This document shows positions 29,301 to 46,177 of a DNA stretch of 64,000 nt, in pieces (within the stretch, counting starts at the first letter, position 1; each line of letters begins with the position of its first letter). The position numbers were made by a program, and so were the translations under genes. The stretch is from a virus. The notes under the pieces are model-generated. The model saw only the letters and a program-made list of their open reading frames with translations. It was not told the origin of the DNA and searched no databases. The stretch is taken from the UHGV virus genome UHGV-1356548. One strand, written 5' to 3'.

Positions 29301-29329
29301 TTGACAATCAGTATTTGCTATGATAAAAT
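29301..29329 (+). promoter_or_regulatory. sigma70-like promoter with extended -10
   Basis: TTGACA (29301-29306), 17-bp spacer ending TGA, TAAAAT (29324-29329); followed by GGAGGA RBS and ATG 29358. Confidence 0.55.
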
Positions 29330-29357: not shown

Positions 29358-29696
29358 ATGGCGGATACAACTAAAAAGCGTCGCCGTAGAGGCAGACCTC
29401 TGAAAGAGGAGTCCAACGCCATTCAGCTAGAGAAGAACATCCTTGATATGAAGGAATCTTTTATAGCGATGGTTCCAGAAGCTCACAAAGTTTTAAGAGA
29501 GCTGATGTTGGACCCGAAAACCAAACAAAATATTCGTCAAAGCATTGCAGAGTATGTTCTTGATAAGGCAGACCGAATGCAGGAAGAATATGATGAGATG
29601 TTTGGTGAAGAGGAAGAGGTGGTAGTAGAAGAGGCTGAAAAACCAGCACCTTTTATGCCATTTACCACAGAAATACAACCTGTTAGCAATAGCTAA
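29358..29696 (+). CDS. small basic/acidic protein with AT-hook-like motif
   Basis: Start at ATG 29358 (MADTTKKRRRRGRPLK...); RGRP AT-hook-like N-terminus and acidic C-terminal tail; the longer ORF-track start at 29238 lies upstream of the promoter. Confidence 0.4.
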   Translation: MADTTKKRRRRGRPLKEESNAIQLEKNILDMKESFIAMVPEAHKVLRELMLDPKTKQNIRQSIAEYVLDKADRMQEEYDEMFGEEEEVVVEEAEKPAPFMPFTTEIQPVSNS

Positions 29697-29705
29697 AATA
29701 TTTTC

Positions 29706-29734
29706 TTGACAAACTTTGCTTAACAGTGTAATAT
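29706..29734 (+). promoter_or_regulatory. sigma70-like promoter of tRNA cluster
   Basis: TTGACA (29706-29711), 17-bp spacer, TAATAT (29729-29734), about 60 bp upstream of the first tRNA. Confidence 0.5.
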
Positions 29735-29792
29735 TGTAAACATGGTCTCCCACCTTTTCTGGCGGCTAAGGTGTAAAAGAAAGCCACCCAGT

Positions 29793-29867
29793 GCCCTGTT
29801 AGCTTAGTGGATAAAGCAGCGGCCTTCTAAGCCGTTGACACTGGTTCGAGTCCAGTACGGGGTGCCA
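29793..29867 (+). tRNA. tRNA-Arg (anticodon UCU)
   Basis: Cloverleaf by hand: acceptor GCCCTGT/ACGGGGT, D-arm GCTT...AAGC, anticodon loop CTTCTAA, T-loop TTCGAGT, encoded CCA. Confidence 0.75.
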
Positions 29868-29871
29868 AATT

Positions 29872-29958
29872 GGGGAGTTATCCCGTAGGGGTAGCGGTGT
29901 AGACTGTAAATCTATTGTCATTGCGACTCGGGTGGTTCGACTCCACCACTCCCCACCA
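29872..29958 (+). tRNA. tRNA-Tyr (anticodon GUA), class II
   Basis: Acceptor GGGGAGT/ACTCCCC, anticodon loop CTGTAAA, long variable arm resembling E. coli tRNA-Tyr, T-loop TTCGACT, encoded CCA. Confidence 0.8.
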
Positions 29959-30072
29959 AATTTATAGTTTTAAATGCATAAATCATACAGATAATGGCAT
30001 TGATATTTATCGTCGTTTATACTAGTCACTAACTGCTCGAAAATCAGTGTCATTATCAGTATTGTTTATAAA

Positions 30073-30163
30073 TGAGGGTAGGGAGCAATGGTGCTCAAGC
30101 GGTCTTGAAAACCGTCCCGTTGAGGATGACTTGATGATGGTTCGATTCCATTACCCTCAGCCA
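30073..30163 (+). tRNA. tRNA-Ser (anticodon UGA), class II
   Basis: Acceptor TGAGGGT/ACCCTCA, anticodon arm GCGGT-CTTGAAA-ACCGT, long variable arm, T-loop TTCGATT, encoded CCA; 5' boundary +/-1 nt. Confidence 0.7.
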
Positions 30164-30260
30164 TATTGTTGACCTTGTAATTAAGCGAAAGCCGGAAGCA
30201 GAACCGGATTATCAAATGTTACAGTCGTCATCGCCGACTAGCAACATGGTCAACATACTG

Positions 30261-30359
30261 AGCTAGGTAAGCCCTTTGGCAAGGGCGAGGATTTTTAATC
30301 CTGAAAATAGACGAGGTAGTCGTTGAATACATAGGTGGTTCGATTCCATCACCTAGCAC
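30261..30359 (+). tRNA. atypical tRNA-like gene, Lys-type anticodon loop (UUU), oversized variable region
   Basis: Perfect 7-bp acceptor GCTAGGT/ACCTAGC, D-arm GCCC-TTTGGCAA-GGGC, anticodon arm AGGA-TTTTTAA-TCCT, T-arm GGTGG-TTCGATT-CCATC, but 32 nt (with its own GACGA-GGTAG-TCGTT hairpin) between anticodon and T arms; 3' end is CCT not CCA. Confidence 0.4.
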
Positions 30360-30364
30360 CTTTT

Positions 30365-30440
30365 TGCTGATGTAGCACAATTGGTAGTGCAATTGATTTG
30401 TAATCAATAGGTTGCAGGTTCAAGTCCTGCCATCAGCACC
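30365..30440 (+). tRNA. tRNA-Thr (anticodon UGU)
   Basis: Acceptor GCTGATG/CATCAGC, anticodon arm ATTGA-TTTGTAA-TCAAT, T-loop TTCAAGT, encoded CCA. Confidence 0.85.
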
Positions 30441-30441
30441 A

Positions 30442-30516
30442 TGGCCCTGTAGCTGGAAGGTTCAAGCAAGCGACTCATAATCGCCAGACGGTGGTTCAAT
30501 TCCACCCAGGGCCACC
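30442..30516 (+). tRNA. tRNA-Met (anticodon CAU; elongator or Ile-lysidine type)
   Basis: Acceptor GGCCCTG/CAGGGCC with G1-C72 pair, anticodon arm GCGA-CTCATAA-TCGC, T-loop TTCAATT, encoded CCA. Confidence 0.8.
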
Positions 30517-30527
30517 AAATAATAAAT

Positions 30528-30604
30528 ACTCCGCGTAGCTCAGCTTGGTAGAGCGCCTGATTTGGGATCAGGAGGTCGAGTGTTCGAATCACTCCGTGGA
30601 GACC
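30528..30604 (+). tRNA. tRNA-Pro (anticodon UGG)
   Basis: Acceptor CTCCGCG/CGTGGAG with the C1-G72 pair typical of bacterial tRNA-Pro, D-arm GCTC...GAGC, anticodon arm CCTGA-TTTGGGA-TCAGG, T-loop TTCGAAT, encoded CCA. Confidence 0.85.
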
Positions 30605-30650
30605 ACTTTCAGTTATACTTTAAACATATACAAACAAAAGGAACCTTTAA

Positions 30651-43840: not shown

Positions 43841-46177
43841 ATGGCTACAAACAAAATAGTTGCCACAACAGTCAACAAGATTGGCTTTGAGATAGAGAAC
43901 TCCTCCTACAAAAAAGCTGTAGAGAAAATTCGCAGTATTGGGAGGGAGTTCAGGAAACTGGGCGAAGATTTTAACTCAGCCAACCCCATGAGCAGATGGC
44001 AGGCGGTAGCTGTTAAAACCCAGCAGACAATGCAGCGGGTTGCCAGACAGCAATCTCAGGCAAATGCTAAACTGCACAGAGAGAGCGTAGCACAGGCCAA
44101 GAAAGAGGCTGCAGTAAGGGCTGCAATAGAACGTAGGGAGAATGCGAGACGTAAACAAGCTGTAGGTAATCTTACCGCTAAAAATCCAGAAATGGCTAGG
44201 ATGCGTAAGTTCTACCAGCAGCAAGCTAAAGAGGCCAAAAAGGCTGCCAAATCTGCACCAGTGTCTTACGGTGGTTATAAGGCACCTAAGGCAAGAGTTT
44301 TGGCTAATGCCAAATCTTTCAAATATATCCCCGGTAACCCTAATATGGGTGGTGTGGCTTCCGACCCTAACCTTGTGAAAGCTCAGACAGCCGCTATGAA
44401 TCGTTATCATAGACAGCTAAGAAGAGACAGTAAAGCTGGTATGGATAATAAGCTTATGTCGGATCGTGAGGCAAGGAGAACCCACCTCTACAACTCCGCG
44501 ATAAGACTTTCTGCCAAGTATGGGGCCGGATTCCGTGGAAGCTTACCAGGATACTCAGAGTTAGAGTCCAGGTTTGCTCGCGGGGAGATGAAGAAGTCAA
44601 CCTTTAACGCCCACCTGTCAGCGCTGCAGTCTGGGTTTAAAAGCGCCACCAGCCAAACGCTTACACTAGGCGATGCCATGAGAGACTTACGTAGATCTGT
44701 TATTAATGCAACAGCTGCGTATACGGCTTTTTCTGGATTTGCTGCGGTTAACAGATCCGGTCACATGATGGAGGGGGCAAGTGCTGCTCTTACTGCTGTT
44801 ACTGGAGATCCAAACAAAGCCAACAGTGAGGTTGCGTTTGTCCAGCAAGAGGCTATGCGTCTTGGTTTTGATCTCAAATCTGGTCTTCAAGGTTACGCCC
44901 AGATGTCGGTAAACGCCAAAAACCAGATGACAAATCAGGAAGTGCATGAGCTGTTTTCTGCATACTCACAGTATGCTGCTGCTTATGGTGCCGATGAGGT
45001 AAAATACCAGCGCGGTATTATGGCTATCCAACAGATGCTTGGCAAGGGACAAGTAATGTCCGAAGAACTGAAGCAACAACTTGCTGAAGCATTGCCCGGT
45101 GCATACGAACCTTTTATCAAGGCCACCAAAGAGGCTTTTGGTCTTTCTGAACTCTCCATGGATCAGTTCATGGACATGATGAAGAAAGGTGAGGTTAAAA
45201 CAGCCAAGATCATGAAGTATGTGGCTAAGTACATGAACGAGGCATCTGCAGCTGGTTATGAAAGAATGCAGAAGTCTAACGTGCTGGCAGAAAACAGACT
45301 GAAAACCTTCATCGAACTGACTCGTCAGAAACTGTTCACCCGTTGGTCCGACGAACTAACAGAGTTCTATTATACACTAATCCGCACTGGTGAGACTCTG
45401 CAATTTGTGTGGGATGCCTCTGGTGATTTTGTTAGCGGGTTTGTGAGAGGCCTTAACTGGGTAGTTGGTGAACTAAACAACACCATAGTCAAGATCCGCA
45501 TGTTTTTCCTTGAATGGGGGATTAAATGGGGATTCATAACAGCTAAGACGAAGGAATATTCTGAAGAGCTTCATGACACCTTTAGCTATGCTAAATGGGC
45601 AGGGTTTGCTGCTGCCATCATGCTGGTAGTCAATGCCCTAACAAAAGGTTTTGTCATGGCATCCATGCTTGTAAAAACCTTTAAATTCCTTAACTCTCTA
45701 AGGGGTGCAGCCGGAGCAGCGGGTGCCGCTACTACAGAAGGATCTGGTGGTGGAGCTCCGGCAGGAAAAGGTGGGGGTGGCCTCAAGACACCTGGTGGCA
45801 AAGTTGGTCTGCTCGGTAAGCTGGGCATTATCGGTACAATACTAAGCGCCGGGGAATTATTTAATGACCGTTACAACCCACTAAGTGAAAGAAATCAGCA
45901 GCTGGACACTATCAGCGATATGATTCGCAAAGATATCATATCGGGAGGTAACGGGTTTGTTAATCCTTTGGACACCTTACCGGGCGGGACTCTTCCGTTG
46001 CCGGGTGGCCCTGGTTTTGCTTCTCAATTAAGAACTATGGAAATGCTACCTTTAGAGATCAGTGATGGGAAAATCACGATTTCAATAGATGAGGGTGAGT
46101 TTAACAAAATATTTGATGCAAAACTTGAGTGGGAGAACAATAAAGATATCAACTTCATGTCTACCGACCTTTGGTAA
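43841..46177 (+). CDS. tail tape measure protein
   Basis: 778-aa ORF, extended helical/Ala-Lys-rich N-terminal half, Gly-rich hydrophobic segment (GGGAPAGKGGGGLKTPGGKVGLLGKLGIIGTILSAG); directly follows the chaperone pair. Confidence 0.75.
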   Translation: MATNKIVATTVNKIGFEIENSSYKKAVEKIRSIGREFRKLGEDFNSANPMSRWQAVAVKTQQTMQRVARQQSQANAKLHRESVAQAKKEAAVRAAIERRENARRKQAVGNLTAKNPEMARMRKFYQQQAKEAKKAAKSAPVSYGGYKAPKARVLANAKSFKYIPGNPNMGGVASDPNLVKAQTAAMNRYHRQLRRDSKAGMDNKLMSDREARRTHLYNSAIRLSAKYGAGFRGSLPGYSELESRFARGEMKKSTFNAHLSALQSGFKSATSQTLTLGDAMRDLRRSVINATAAYTAFSGFAAVNRSGHMMEGASAALTAVTGDPNKANSEVAFVQQEAMRLGFDLKSGLQGYAQMSVNAKNQMTNQEVHELFSAYSQYAAAYGADEVKYQRGIMAIQQMLGKGQVMSEELKQQLAEALPGAYEPFIKATKEAFGLSELSMDQFMDMMKKGEVKTAKIMKYVAKYMNEASAAGYERMQKSNVLAENRLKTFIELTRQKLFTRWSDELTEFYYTLIRTGETLQFVWDASGDFVSGFVRGLNWVVGELNNTIVKIRMFFLEWGIKWGFITAKTKEYSEELHDTFSYAKWAGFAAAIMLVVNALTKGFVMASMLVKTFKFLNSLRGAAGAAGAATTEGSGGGAPAGKGGGGLKTPGGKVGLLGKLGIIGTILSAGELFNDRYNPLSERNQQLDTISDMIRKDIISGGNGFVNPLDTLPGGTLPLPGGPGFASQLRTMEMLPLEISDGKITISIDEGEFNKIFDAKLEWENNKDINFMSTDLW

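Follow-up and report, generated by a model that had tools for sequence, protein, structure and literature searches.

Phage T4 carries a transfer RNA (tRNA) region in which eight tRNAs are co-transcribed with two stable RNAs, species 1 and 2 (rnaC, rnaD), to which no function is known to be assigned. In the coliphage rV5, the reported genome has six tRNAs, namely Arg-AGA, Tyr-TAC, Thr-ACA, Met-ATG, Pro-CCA and Ser (Kropinski et al. 2013, PMC3606486). The authors of that report argued for codon supplementation, and they found the tRNA-Met "seemingly unwarranted" (PMC3606486). Here we describe the tRNA cluster of the virus genome UHGV-1356548, which we analyzed as one stretch of 64,000 nucleotides (the window). 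The cluster contains six ordinary tRNA genes, a seventh gene that is tRNA-shaped but aberrant (the odd gene), and, behind tRNA-Ser, a spacer that we call the Ser-trailer element. We think that the locus is an rV5-type tRNA cluster which mainly serves codon supplementation, in which tRNA-Tyr acts as an insurance, the odd gene specifies a tRNA mimic, and the spacer specifies a separate structured RNA. We give this reading as a whole a probability of about 75%.

The window belongs to an rV5-type coliphage (Vequintavirus). Its cluster region is 100% identical to that of the Escherichia phages I29 and A51.2, at least 80% of the region is covered by 114 phage records, and more than 100 rV5-type phages are 98-100% identical over it. 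The cluster is already known: its sequence is in GenBank, its six tRNAs were published in 2013, and all seven genes are annotated in GenBank records such as MN850576 ("ime") and MZ501094 ("MaxTheCat"). About 19 GenBank records labelled "Campylobacter phage" (MG065635, MG065653 and about 17 others) are 99-100% identical to the E. coli rV5-type phages here; their hosts are probably mislabelled, or the records contaminated.

When ARAGORN was run over the whole 64-kb window, it called exactly seven tRNA-type genes, all on the + strand and all within 29793-30605. Seven calls packed in 813 base pairs (bp), with zero elsewhere in 64 kb, are far beyond chance. An earlier interpretation made from the letters only (the sequence-only reading) had folded seven tRNA or tRNA-like genes by hand at this place, six of them with an encoded CCA end, and would have been in doubt if automated finders rejected most of them; the finder accepted all seven in the window, and our reading of the sequence also gives CCA in six of the seven. 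These six are tRNA-Arg(UCU) (29793..29867; reading AGA, and AGG by wobble), the class II tRNA-Tyr(GUA) (29872..29958; of a phage/plasmid-type sequence), the class II tRNA-Ser(UGA) (30073..30163; U1-A72, G73), tRNA-Thr(UGU) (30366..30441), a gene with the anticodon CAU (30443..30517; "Met" according to ARAGORN, with ileX-type similarity) and tRNA-Pro(UGG) (30529..30605). Each of them shows a cloverleaf, a 7-bp acceptor stem, a D arm, an anticodon arm of 5 bp and 7 nucleotides with U33, and a TTCRANY T loop, and each is detected by the finder. With the tRNA model of Rfam (RF00005), the Thr, Arg, Pro and CAU genes scored 60-80 bits (Thr, 79.5; Arg, 67.8; Pro, 66.4). The Tyr and Ser genes matched only the long-arm tRNA-Sec model of Rfam, below its threshold, as class II tRNAs often do. 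The odd gene (30262..30360) was called "???" by ARAGORN and scored 35.5 bits; it ends in ...ACCUAGC-A-CC-U, that is, A73 is followed by CC without the last A.

In order to clarify the codon demand of the phage, we set 66 non-overlapping open reading frames (ORFs) taken from the window (18,218 codons) against a sample of 45 annotated E. coli K-12 genes (14,630 codons). The six codons most enriched in the phage were AGA (17-fold), AGG (12-fold), ATA (5-fold), ACA (5-fold), TCT (3.1-fold) and CCT (3-fold), and UCA and CCA were enriched 1.9-fold and 1.3-fold. Each of the top six is read by a tRNA of the cluster, that is, by Arg-UCU, Ile2, Thr-UGU, Ser-UGA or Pro-UGG, the last three of which read by wobble through a modified U34. 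The expectation that the cluster would supply the host-rare codon AGA was thus borne out by the 17-fold excess. Codon supplementation accounts well for five of the seven genes, in agreement with the figures of the rV5 paper (PMC3606486). The codons TAC/TAT (1.3- to 1.5-fold) and AAA (1.3-fold) were not notably enriched, so that codon supplementation leaves tRNA-Tyr and the "Lys-like" odd gene unexplained. The main job of the cluster would be to top up the host tRNA pool for AGA/AGG, AUA, ACA, UCU/UCA and CCU/CCA, and six of its products would be ordinary decoders: Arg(UCU), Tyr(GUA), Ser(UGA), Thr(UGU), Pro(UGG) and Ile2(CAU), the last reading AUA once the host TilS has made lysidine.

The assignment of the CAU gene to Ile2 replaces the name Met-CAU given in the sequence-only reading. 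Among 5426 complete E. coli genomes, the CAU gene had matches in 5345, with a median of two loci per genome. Every sampled best match was annotated as tRNA-Ile, and at E<=1e-3 no sampled match was annotated as Met. The 15-nucleotide anticodon stem-loop, GCGACUCAUAAUCGC (also written GCGACTCATAATCGC), is identical in the CAU gene and in tRNA-Ile(CAU) of K-12; the acceptor stem GGCCC/GGGCC is shared by the window gene, the K-12 gene and the P1-like gene, and the discriminator is A as in K-12. TilS tells Ile2 from Met by the pairs C4:G69 and C5:G68, and both pairs are present in the CAU gene. An initiator tRNA-fMet is marked by a mismatch at 1:72 and by three G-C pairs at the bottom of the anticodon stem; this candidate was excluded, because G1-C72 is paired and the anticodon stem is AGCGA/UCGCC. 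Records based on tRNAscan-SE, including the BASEL record, annotate the gene as Ile/ATA. Moreover, AUG was not enriched in the phage ORFs (0.9-fold) and AUA was enriched 5-fold; codon use therefore fits Ile2 rather than Met. These comparisons identify the CAU gene as a tRNA-Ile2, predicted to read AUA after lysidine formation, and not as a tRNA-Met. With the gene read as Ile2, the tRNA-Met that had seemed unwarranted to the rV5 authors is no longer a puzzle, and a long-standing mis-annotation is corrected in that the phage "tRNA-Met" would be an AUA reader. The cluster as such adds little: it is published, annotated and, once CAU is Ile2, a classic fit to codon supplementation.

The two genes left unexplained by codon demand lead to host defence. 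Retron-Eco7 PtuAB depletes tRNA-Tyr and the tRNA-Tyr of phage T5 rescues infection, and tRNA-Lys rescues phages from PrrC170 (PMC11555353). The tRNAs cut by PARIS AriB are Lys(UUU), Thr(UGU) and Asn(GUU), and PARIS is neutralised by the T5 variants of them (PMC12409363; PMC11464382). In general, phage tRNAs may be selected for nuclease resistance (PMC10264068). On this published ground, the cluster might mainly defeat tRNA-targeting immunity by re-supplying destroyed tRNAs at a high level or in a cleavage-resistant form, the codon match being secondary; Tyr would then act against retron-Eco7 PtuAB, and Lys and Thr(UGU) against PARIS AriB or PrrC. In line with this view, the phage does not over-use Tyr codons or AAA, the window tRNA-Tyr is unlike the host tRNA-Tyr gene (no match to E. 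coli chromosomal genes at E<=1e-3), and P1-like plasmid clusters encode Asn, Thr, Tyr and Ser tRNAs. In addition, the odd gene has UAAUCC at the position of the AriB site, that is, C41, as in one of the two resistance changes of T5 (A41C in tRNA-Lys; PMC12409363). The tRNA-Thr(UGU) speaks against the view. Its bases U36-A-A-U-C-A41 are identical to the AriB site of the host tRNA (PMC12409363); since the full UAAUCA is intact, it is therefore not a PARIS escape variant. Furthermore, Arg(UCU), Ile2, Pro and Ser fit the codon demand very well and are not the main published nuclease targets. In the literature searched, no report of Vequintavirus sensitivity to PARIS, retron or PrrC was found. We consider it rather doubtful that immunity is the main target of the cluster. 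The sequence-only reading had pointed to Lys and Tyr as known targets of anticodon-nuclease defences, and judged by isoacceptor this idea is plausible for Tyr, Thr and the Lys-like gene. Gene by gene, the sequences make defence evasion a reasonable idea for Tyr and a possible one for the odd gene, and do not support it for Thr; tRNA-Tyr would most likely be an insurance against host systems that deplete tRNA-Tyr. The cluster is in any case a clean natural test case of codon supply versus defence evasion, as Tyr, Thr(UGU) and an RNA with a UUU loop stand beside codon-matched tRNAs and natural deletion variants exist.

The odd gene belongs to a family of its own. A search with the Seunavirus copy found it in 189 phage records, all of them Vequintavirinae where classified, whose hosts are Escherichia, Klebsiella, Salmonella, Cronobacter, Erwinia, Proteus, Raoultella and Enterobacter. 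A metagenome scan added 18 loci, and in total there were 23 unique sequences. The family was present in every Vequintavirinae genus sampled. In the databases the gene is labelled "tRNA-OTHER", "tRNA-Pseudo", "tRNA-???(atcc)" or "tRNA-Lys", or it is unannotated; it has no entry in the rV5 paper (PMC3606486). ARAGORN does not call the Avunavirus or Seunavirus copies, and our literature search for an odd tRNA-like RNA of this kind found no description. Some records of Seunavirus, Mydovirus and Henunavirus loci annotate small hypothetical ORFs over the odd gene itself. In these genera (L136-L143, about 416-600), a gap of about 185 nucleotides without an annotated or called gene also lies between the odd gene and tRNA-Leu(UAA).

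The Rfam tRNA score of 35.5 bits (gathering score, 29) was obtained with one stem position deleted and a G-G mismatch marked. In an alignment of 15 sequences, the four cloverleaf stems were paired in 99.4% of 313 cells, as compared with at most 45% in slid controls, and both partners had changed in 9 of 21 pairs. The elbow pair 19:56 covaried in all 23 unique sequences, being G19:C56 in 15 and U19:A56 in 8. That is, the D-loop UUUGGCAA occurs together with the T-loop UUCGAUU in the former sequences, and the D-loop UUUGUCAA with UUAGAUU in the latter. This covariation of stems and elbow argues that the odd RNA folds as an L-shaped, tRNA-like molecule. A 3' end of U73-CCA occurs in 16 of the 23 sequences. 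All members have A8/U14, the reverse of the U8/A14 that is near-universal in tRNAs. The variable region is 31-40 nucleotides long (31 in the window) and consists of a hairpin between two invariant single-stranded flanks, GAAAAUA and GAAUACAUA; the hairpin, flanked by 7 and 9 unpaired bases, differs in sequence and length among the members and covaries.

The anticodon arm of the odd RNA has 15 nucleotides in the rV5, Avunavirus and Henunavirus types and 16 in the Seunavirus and Mydovirus types, never the canonical 17. The fifth pair of its stem is C-G in 10 sequences and U-A in 3, and this covariation points to a stem of 5 bp and thus to a 5-nucleotide loop, UUUUA, in the window. A 7-nucleotide loop UUUUUAA, with U33, UUU and A37, is obtained in the window only if the covarying U-A closing pair is opened to leave 4 bp. 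With the stem read in this 4-bp form throughout, the loop is UUUUUAA in the rV5 types (invariant in five variants), UUUAUAA in Av-05 (Avunavirus), and (C/U)AUCAAA in Henunavirus and two metagenomic lineages, that is, UCA after A33, which one record calls a suppressor; it is CC-NN-C(C/A)AG, of 8 nucleotides, in Seunavirus and Mydovirus, whose homologues have loops of 6 or 8 nucleotides. Among the 23 unique sequences there are 11 different anticodon arms, and UUU occurs only in the rV5 types. Three Mydovirus-type copies are identical over 109 nucleotides except for two adjacent bases of the loop.

Two classes of long-armed tRNA were considered for the odd gene and rejected. The hallmarks of tRNA-Sec are acceptor and T stems of 8 and 5 bp, a 6-bp D stem, G73 and the anticodon UCA. 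The odd RNA resembles it in the UCA loop of some genera, but stems of 7 and 5 bp, a 4-bp D stem, A73 or U73 and the restriction of UCA to those genera rule out this assignment, and the Rfam Sec model gave no match. The 7 and 9 unpaired bases around the variable hairpin are likewise unlike the arms of class II tRNAs. With class II tRNAs, tRNA-Sec and the tRNA-like module of YrlA, the odd RNA has in common the predicted L shape with a D-loop/T-loop elbow and an extra arm growing from the variable region; in contrast to them, its hairpin is flanked by 7-9 unpaired conserved bases and its anticodon arm is too short, and neither the Sec nor the YrlA model of Rfam matched. Our belief is evenly balanced on whether the odd gene specifies a non-decoding tRNA mimic, which is the reading we adopt for it; an aberrant but working tRNA-Lys comes second, and a small remainder goes to decay or other options. 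The seventh gene would then yield an L-shaped, tRNA-like RNA that is processed like a tRNA and belongs to a subfamily-wide family of mimics with the loop free to change. Since the loop changes so fast, the guess that appeals most for the partner of the mimic is a defence enzyme that binds tRNAs, though this is a conjecture.

Several points weigh against our reading of the locus, and the first is that the odd gene might decode after all. In the rV5 types it could be a working, aberrant tRNA-Lys(UUU), whose anticodon stem of 4 bp and giant variable arm would perhaps serve to keep anticodon nucleases from binding. When the closing U-A pair is open, the loop with U33, UUU and A37, together with A73, fits the identity features of Lys, and this loop is unchanged in the five rV5-type variants. 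The score of the gene lies above the Rfam gathering score, annotation based on tRNAscan-SE calls the rV5 copy tRNA-Lys (AAA), and C41 is shared with the PARIS-resistant tRNA-Lys of T5 (PMC12409363). Discriminator and loop also switch together between the genera, from A73 and UUU here to U73 and NCC in Seunavirus and Mydovirus. There, U73 with G1:C72, C2:G71 and NCC recalls the identity of Gly.

The rest of the evidence does not favor a tRNA-Lys. Orthologous tRNAs-Lys should keep their anticodon, and the homologues have UAU (Avunavirus), UCA with A33 (Henunavirus and the metagenomic lineages) or loops of 6 or 8 nucleotides. A tRNA-Lys should also have an anticodon arm of 17 nucleotides and a class I variable loop of 4-5 nucleotides; the odd gene has 15 and 31, respectively, and its 31-nucleotide region is unlike a class II arm too. 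The covarying fifth stem pair supports the 5-nucleotide loop, A8/U14 stands in place of U8/A14, CCA is not encoded, and AAA is not over-used by the phage. ARAGORN gives the gene no isotype, and the rV5 authors did not list it (PMC3606486). The name "Lys-like" given in the sequence-only reading holds only with the stem cut to 4 bp, and the other genera keep the scaffold without UUU. A decoding role of the odd gene in the rV5 lineage seems to us possible but unlikely.

The remaining points against our reading concern its other parts. The codon comparison is built on ORF calls of one 64-kb window and a 50-kb K-12 sample rather than on complete genomes or on genes of high expression. To supply codons and to evade defence do not exclude each other, and the two are not separable by composition alone. 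The expression, processing and charging of the six tRNAs in the phage are predicted from sequence; the papers searched yielded neither tRNA-seq nor Northern data for Vequintavirus. Finally, phages of the JES2013 type have lost the 3' part of tRNA-Tyr, the 5' part of the odd gene and all that lies in between, including tRNA-Ser and the element. These phages are viable, and the lost parts are therefore accessory and dispensable in at least some hosts. The loss occurred by recombination between the similar T arms, leaving a chimeric gene. In the E. coli O157 typing phage 4, of the JES2013 species (L129:1420-1532), this chimera joins a tRNA-Tyr(GUA) body to the 3' acceptor strand of the odd gene and is not called by ARAGORN; Ser and the element are gone, and about 130 nucleotides are inserted after tRNA-Arg.

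The spacer of 98 nucleotides between tRNA-Ser and the odd gene matched phage lambda at positions 44866-44952 (J02459; L003:601-687) with 83% identity. The lambda copy is unannotated and lies between tR'/orf-64 and gene S. The same element was found in the P1-like phage D6 (L004:~995-1078) and in the Salmonella siphophage ST1UNAM (L005:~995-1080). A pattern scan with the core found it in at least 120 IMG/VR contigs, and BLAST found it in 426 of 5426 E. coli genomes, with 332 places chromosomal and 121 on plasmids, never annotated. It is always on the same strand as nearby tRNAs, and in the P1-like clusters and the window it starts 4-24 nucleotides after the CCA of tRNA-Ser(UGA). With the covariance model R1, it was absent from the other Vequintavirinae genera among the loci examined.

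In the window the element occupies 30167..30255 on the + strand, with the stems P1 (30167-30178/30244-30255), P2 (30192-30195/30204-30207) and P3 (30223-30227/30235-30239). Its core of about 68 nucleotides contains the two hairpins and is nearly invariant, AAUUAAGCGA...CCGGAAGCAGAACCGGAU...CAAAUG.GUAC.G.CGUCAUCGCCG..YAGC, being about 90% identical among unrelated phages. The closing stem is rebuilt from different sequences. It was found in 41 of 42 flank variants, made of at least six unrelated sequences, and the one exception was an evident lambdoid recombinant (L034). That is, the stem is GUUGACC/GGUCAAC in the window, AGGAUCA/UGAUCCU in a second Vequintavirus lineage, GUUGUGCUG/CAGCACAAC in lambda and GUGGUG/CACCAC in further variants; it reaches 14 bp (AAGAGUAUUUGGCU/AGCCAAGUGCUCUU) in the P1-like copies and about 23 bp in ST1UNAM. 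When 21 copies were realigned with a covariance model of this structure, 89% of the cells were paired, against at most 45% in slid controls, and changes on both sides were seen in 8 of 9 pairs of P1 and 2 of 5 pairs of P3; as the model shaped this alignment, the counts are tilted in favor of the structure. We take these results to identify the element as a structured non-coding RNA that is separate from the tRNAs.

No described RNA corresponded to the element. Rfam 15 gave no match at E<=1 to the copies of the window, lambda, D6 and ST1UNAM, and none at the gathering score in 13 loci. At permissive thresholds, no ribozyme, riboswitch, C4, AgvB/AsxR or STnc100 match overlapped the element or the hairpin of the Tyr-Ser spacer; an STnc100-like match in D6 lies downstream of the element and is sub-threshold. 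A decayed tRNA was rejected because ARAGORN and the tRNA model find nothing there, and a small ORF because the sole ATG-led frame is shifted by a 1-nucleotide indel between lambda and the window. The likeness of GGAUCACC in lambda to the 3' end of 16S rRNA is not conserved in the rV5 or ST1UNAM copies and was treated as chance. Our literature search found no paper that describes the element or an RNA between lambda tR' and S. The known anti-sRNAs (directed against small RNAs, sRNAs) of lambdoid prophages come from the same general "moron" region, but they are terminator-bearing RNAs of 51-60 nucleotides. The element would probably be released from the precursor as a stable RNA of about 90 nucleotides, and our best guess is that in this form it acts through its invariant loops.

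The surroundings of the element differ from phage to phage. The lambdoid and P1-like flanks (e.g., L003:578-596, L004:1066-1080) contain UGCUCUUU / GUGCUCUUA, a motif that is absent from the window copy and that resembles boxA, which serves antitermination in rrn operons and in the nut sites of lambda. An alternative upstream hairpin of lambda, CACAACAGGUAAGAGCAUU...AGUGCUCUUUCCGUUGUG, overlaps with this motif. In ST1UNAM (L005:519-1336), tail genes border a non-coding gap of 800 bp, which holds the element on the strand opposite to theirs; a decayed tRNA in the same gap, at about 1155-1215, has D and T arms and lacks the anticodon arm. A lambdoid prophage contig (L113:10464-10612) carries a full-length SIB RNA (type I antitoxin, 111 bits) about 225 nucleotides upstream of the element. 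There were also 22 matches (L163-L184) in contigs of Pseudomonas, Shewanella, Bradyrhizobium, Oceanobacillus and others, one genome per species; these contigs are about 48.4-48.5 kb or tiny and have very low coverage, and the matches look like contamination with lambda control DNA, uninformative on the range of the element.

The other long spacer, between tRNA-Tyr and tRNA-Ser, holds a long imperfect hairpin on the + strand (29978..30069), with a lower stem of about 25 bp, a 15-bp core (29990-30004/30044-30058) and a fold z-score of -4.2. In 8 Vequintavirus variants none of its 33 predicted pairs was broken, and there was one compensatory double change from C-G to U-A. It was found only in Vequintavirus; in the P1-like clusters it was looked for and was absent. 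A duplex of such length is a typical substrate of RNase III. The apical part contains a weak promoter-like match, ATGGCA-18-TATACT. The hairpin could be an RNase III site or an operator around this match.

As described above, three RNA features embedded in the cluster, namely the putative tRNA mimic, the element shared with lambda and the long hairpin, appear to be conserved by structure. It might be supposed that these are evolutionary debris, the odd gene being a decayed tRNA with an insertion and the two long spacers leftovers that separate the tRNAs for processing. The JES2013-type phages do without most of this stretch, some annotators label the odd gene "tRNA-Pseudo", and the closing stem of the element is broken in the lambdoid recombinant L034. 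These facts are outweighed by the compensatory changes by which, in five genera, the odd RNA has kept its four stems, its variable hairpin and its 19:56 pair, by the core of the element that stays alike in unrelated phages under a rebuilt closing stem, and by the unbroken pairs of the Tyr-Ser hairpin. We regard debris as very improbable.

A more far-reaching view, to which we give somewhat less than even odds, is that the odd gene and the Ser-trailer element are both undescribed functional RNA classes, the former a Vequintavirinae-wide class of tRNA mimics and the latter a trans- or cis-acting RNA of lambda, P1-like and rV5-type phages. In this case the odd RNA may be a CCA-ending decoy, inhibitor or substrate for a host tRNA-binding factor, for example a defence nuclease directed at tRNAs, or else a scaffold that has switched its amino-acid identity from lineage to lineage. 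Lambda itself would then hold, between tR' and gene S, a conserved RNA that is so far uncharacterised. Among the database records examined, the element and the hairpin are annotated nowhere. Two conserved structured RNAs unnamed in the databases are thus exposed, one of them present in lambda and the other tRNA-shaped with a loop that evolves fastest in the molecule. Each of the two could prove to be a means by which the phage acts on the tRNA biology of its host, and the embedded RNAs are concrete, conserved and easy to test.

The history of the cluster can be considered from its P1-like relatives. The window tRNA-Tyr is 94%, and tRNA-Ser(UGA) 86-87%, identical to copies of P1-like phage-plasmids; the Tyr gene is just 62-69% identical to the tRNA-Tyr of Seunavirus. 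The matches of tRNA-Tyr were 273 copies on P1-like plasmids of about 90-115 kb, with 90-94% identity. Since Tyr and Ser resemble the P1-like copies and the element is absent in other genera, all three look imported. They look like a cassette set between tRNA-Arg and the ancestral part that begins with the odd gene and Thr. The P1-like clusters (e.g., D6, MF356679) have in common with the window tRNA-Tyr, tRNA-Ser(UGA) and the element right after Ser, and both kinds of cluster contain Arg-UCU, Thr-UGU and a CAU gene. They differ in that the P1-like clusters have Thr between Tyr and Ser, lack the odd gene and the Tyr-Ser hairpin, and close the element by a longer stem of other sequence.

The sequence-only reading had placed the cluster behind a promoter of its own, and the consensus scan agrees: a sigma-70-type match TTGACA-N17-TAATAT lies at 29706..29734 on the + strand, with 10 of 12 matching positions, and ends 58 nucleotides upstream of the first tRNA gene. 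It is invariant among diverged relatives (the window, L119, L102 and L129), and everything around it is equally invariant. The predicted 5' leader of the precursor (29735..29792, + strand) is unstructured (fold z-score +0.7) and 97-100% conserved in Vequintavirus relatives. Within the region, the promoter-like site that matches best is at 29301-29329 (TTGACA-17-TAAAAT with an upstream TG, 11 of 12 matches); it precedes a small ORF (29358-29696) that stands just before the cluster, and read-through from it into the cluster could occur. The flanking ORFs are all on the + strand, and in GenBank the genes behind the cluster, likewise rightward, are a hypothetical gene, the i-spanin and the large terminase, in this order. 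In a scan, no terminator-like site was found inside or after the cluster except for chance-level matches within tRNA stems. The stronger upstream promoter match and the lack of a terminator-like site after tRNA-Pro make read-through into and out of the unit likely, and the cluster is likely one rightward unit. In the mechanism that we infer, rightward transcription by the host RNA polymerase would start from 29706-29734, perhaps joined by read-through from 29301-29329, and give a single precursor that continues past the cluster into the spanin and terminase genes. RNase P and 3' exonucleases of the host would cut this precursor into the mature RNAs, and RNase III or RNase E would probably cut within the two long spacers.

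Finally, we compare the locus with the described systems. The rV5 cluster (PMC3606486; MN850576; MZ501094) is the same DNA, with 98-100% identity, the same gene order and the same place upstream of the spanin and terminase genes; the rV5 paper differs from the present description in listing six tRNAs and in naming the CAU gene Met, and not in the sequence itself. The tRNA-rich region of T5 (PMC11555353; PMC11464382; PMC12409363) resembles the window in that the window also encodes Tyr, Thr(UGU) and a UUU-loop RNA, that is, the isoacceptors depleted by those defence systems, and C41 of the odd RNA is like that of the resistant tRNA-Lys of T5. Unlike in T5, the window tRNA-Thr keeps the AriB site and the UUU-loop RNA is not a canonical tRNA, and on the Vequintavirus side the likeness is one of sequence.

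For the Ser-trailer element, a parallel is the 3'ETS of leuZ, an sRNA sponge, which likewise is a conserved RNA released from a tRNA precursor, between or after tRNAs. Unlike it, the element also occurs without tRNAs in the late leader of lambda, and a sponge function of the element would be pure conjecture. For the cluster as a whole, a further parallel is T4, whose tRNA region is like that of the window a compact polycistronic cluster processed by host RNase P, with the overlapping isoacceptors Arg-UCU, Ile-CAU, Thr-UGU, Ser-UGA and Pro-UGG. No sequence match to the stable RNAs of T4 turned up, although no search aimed at them was made. Compared with T4, the extra RNAs of the window are a tRNA-shaped RNA and an element held in common with temperate phages.

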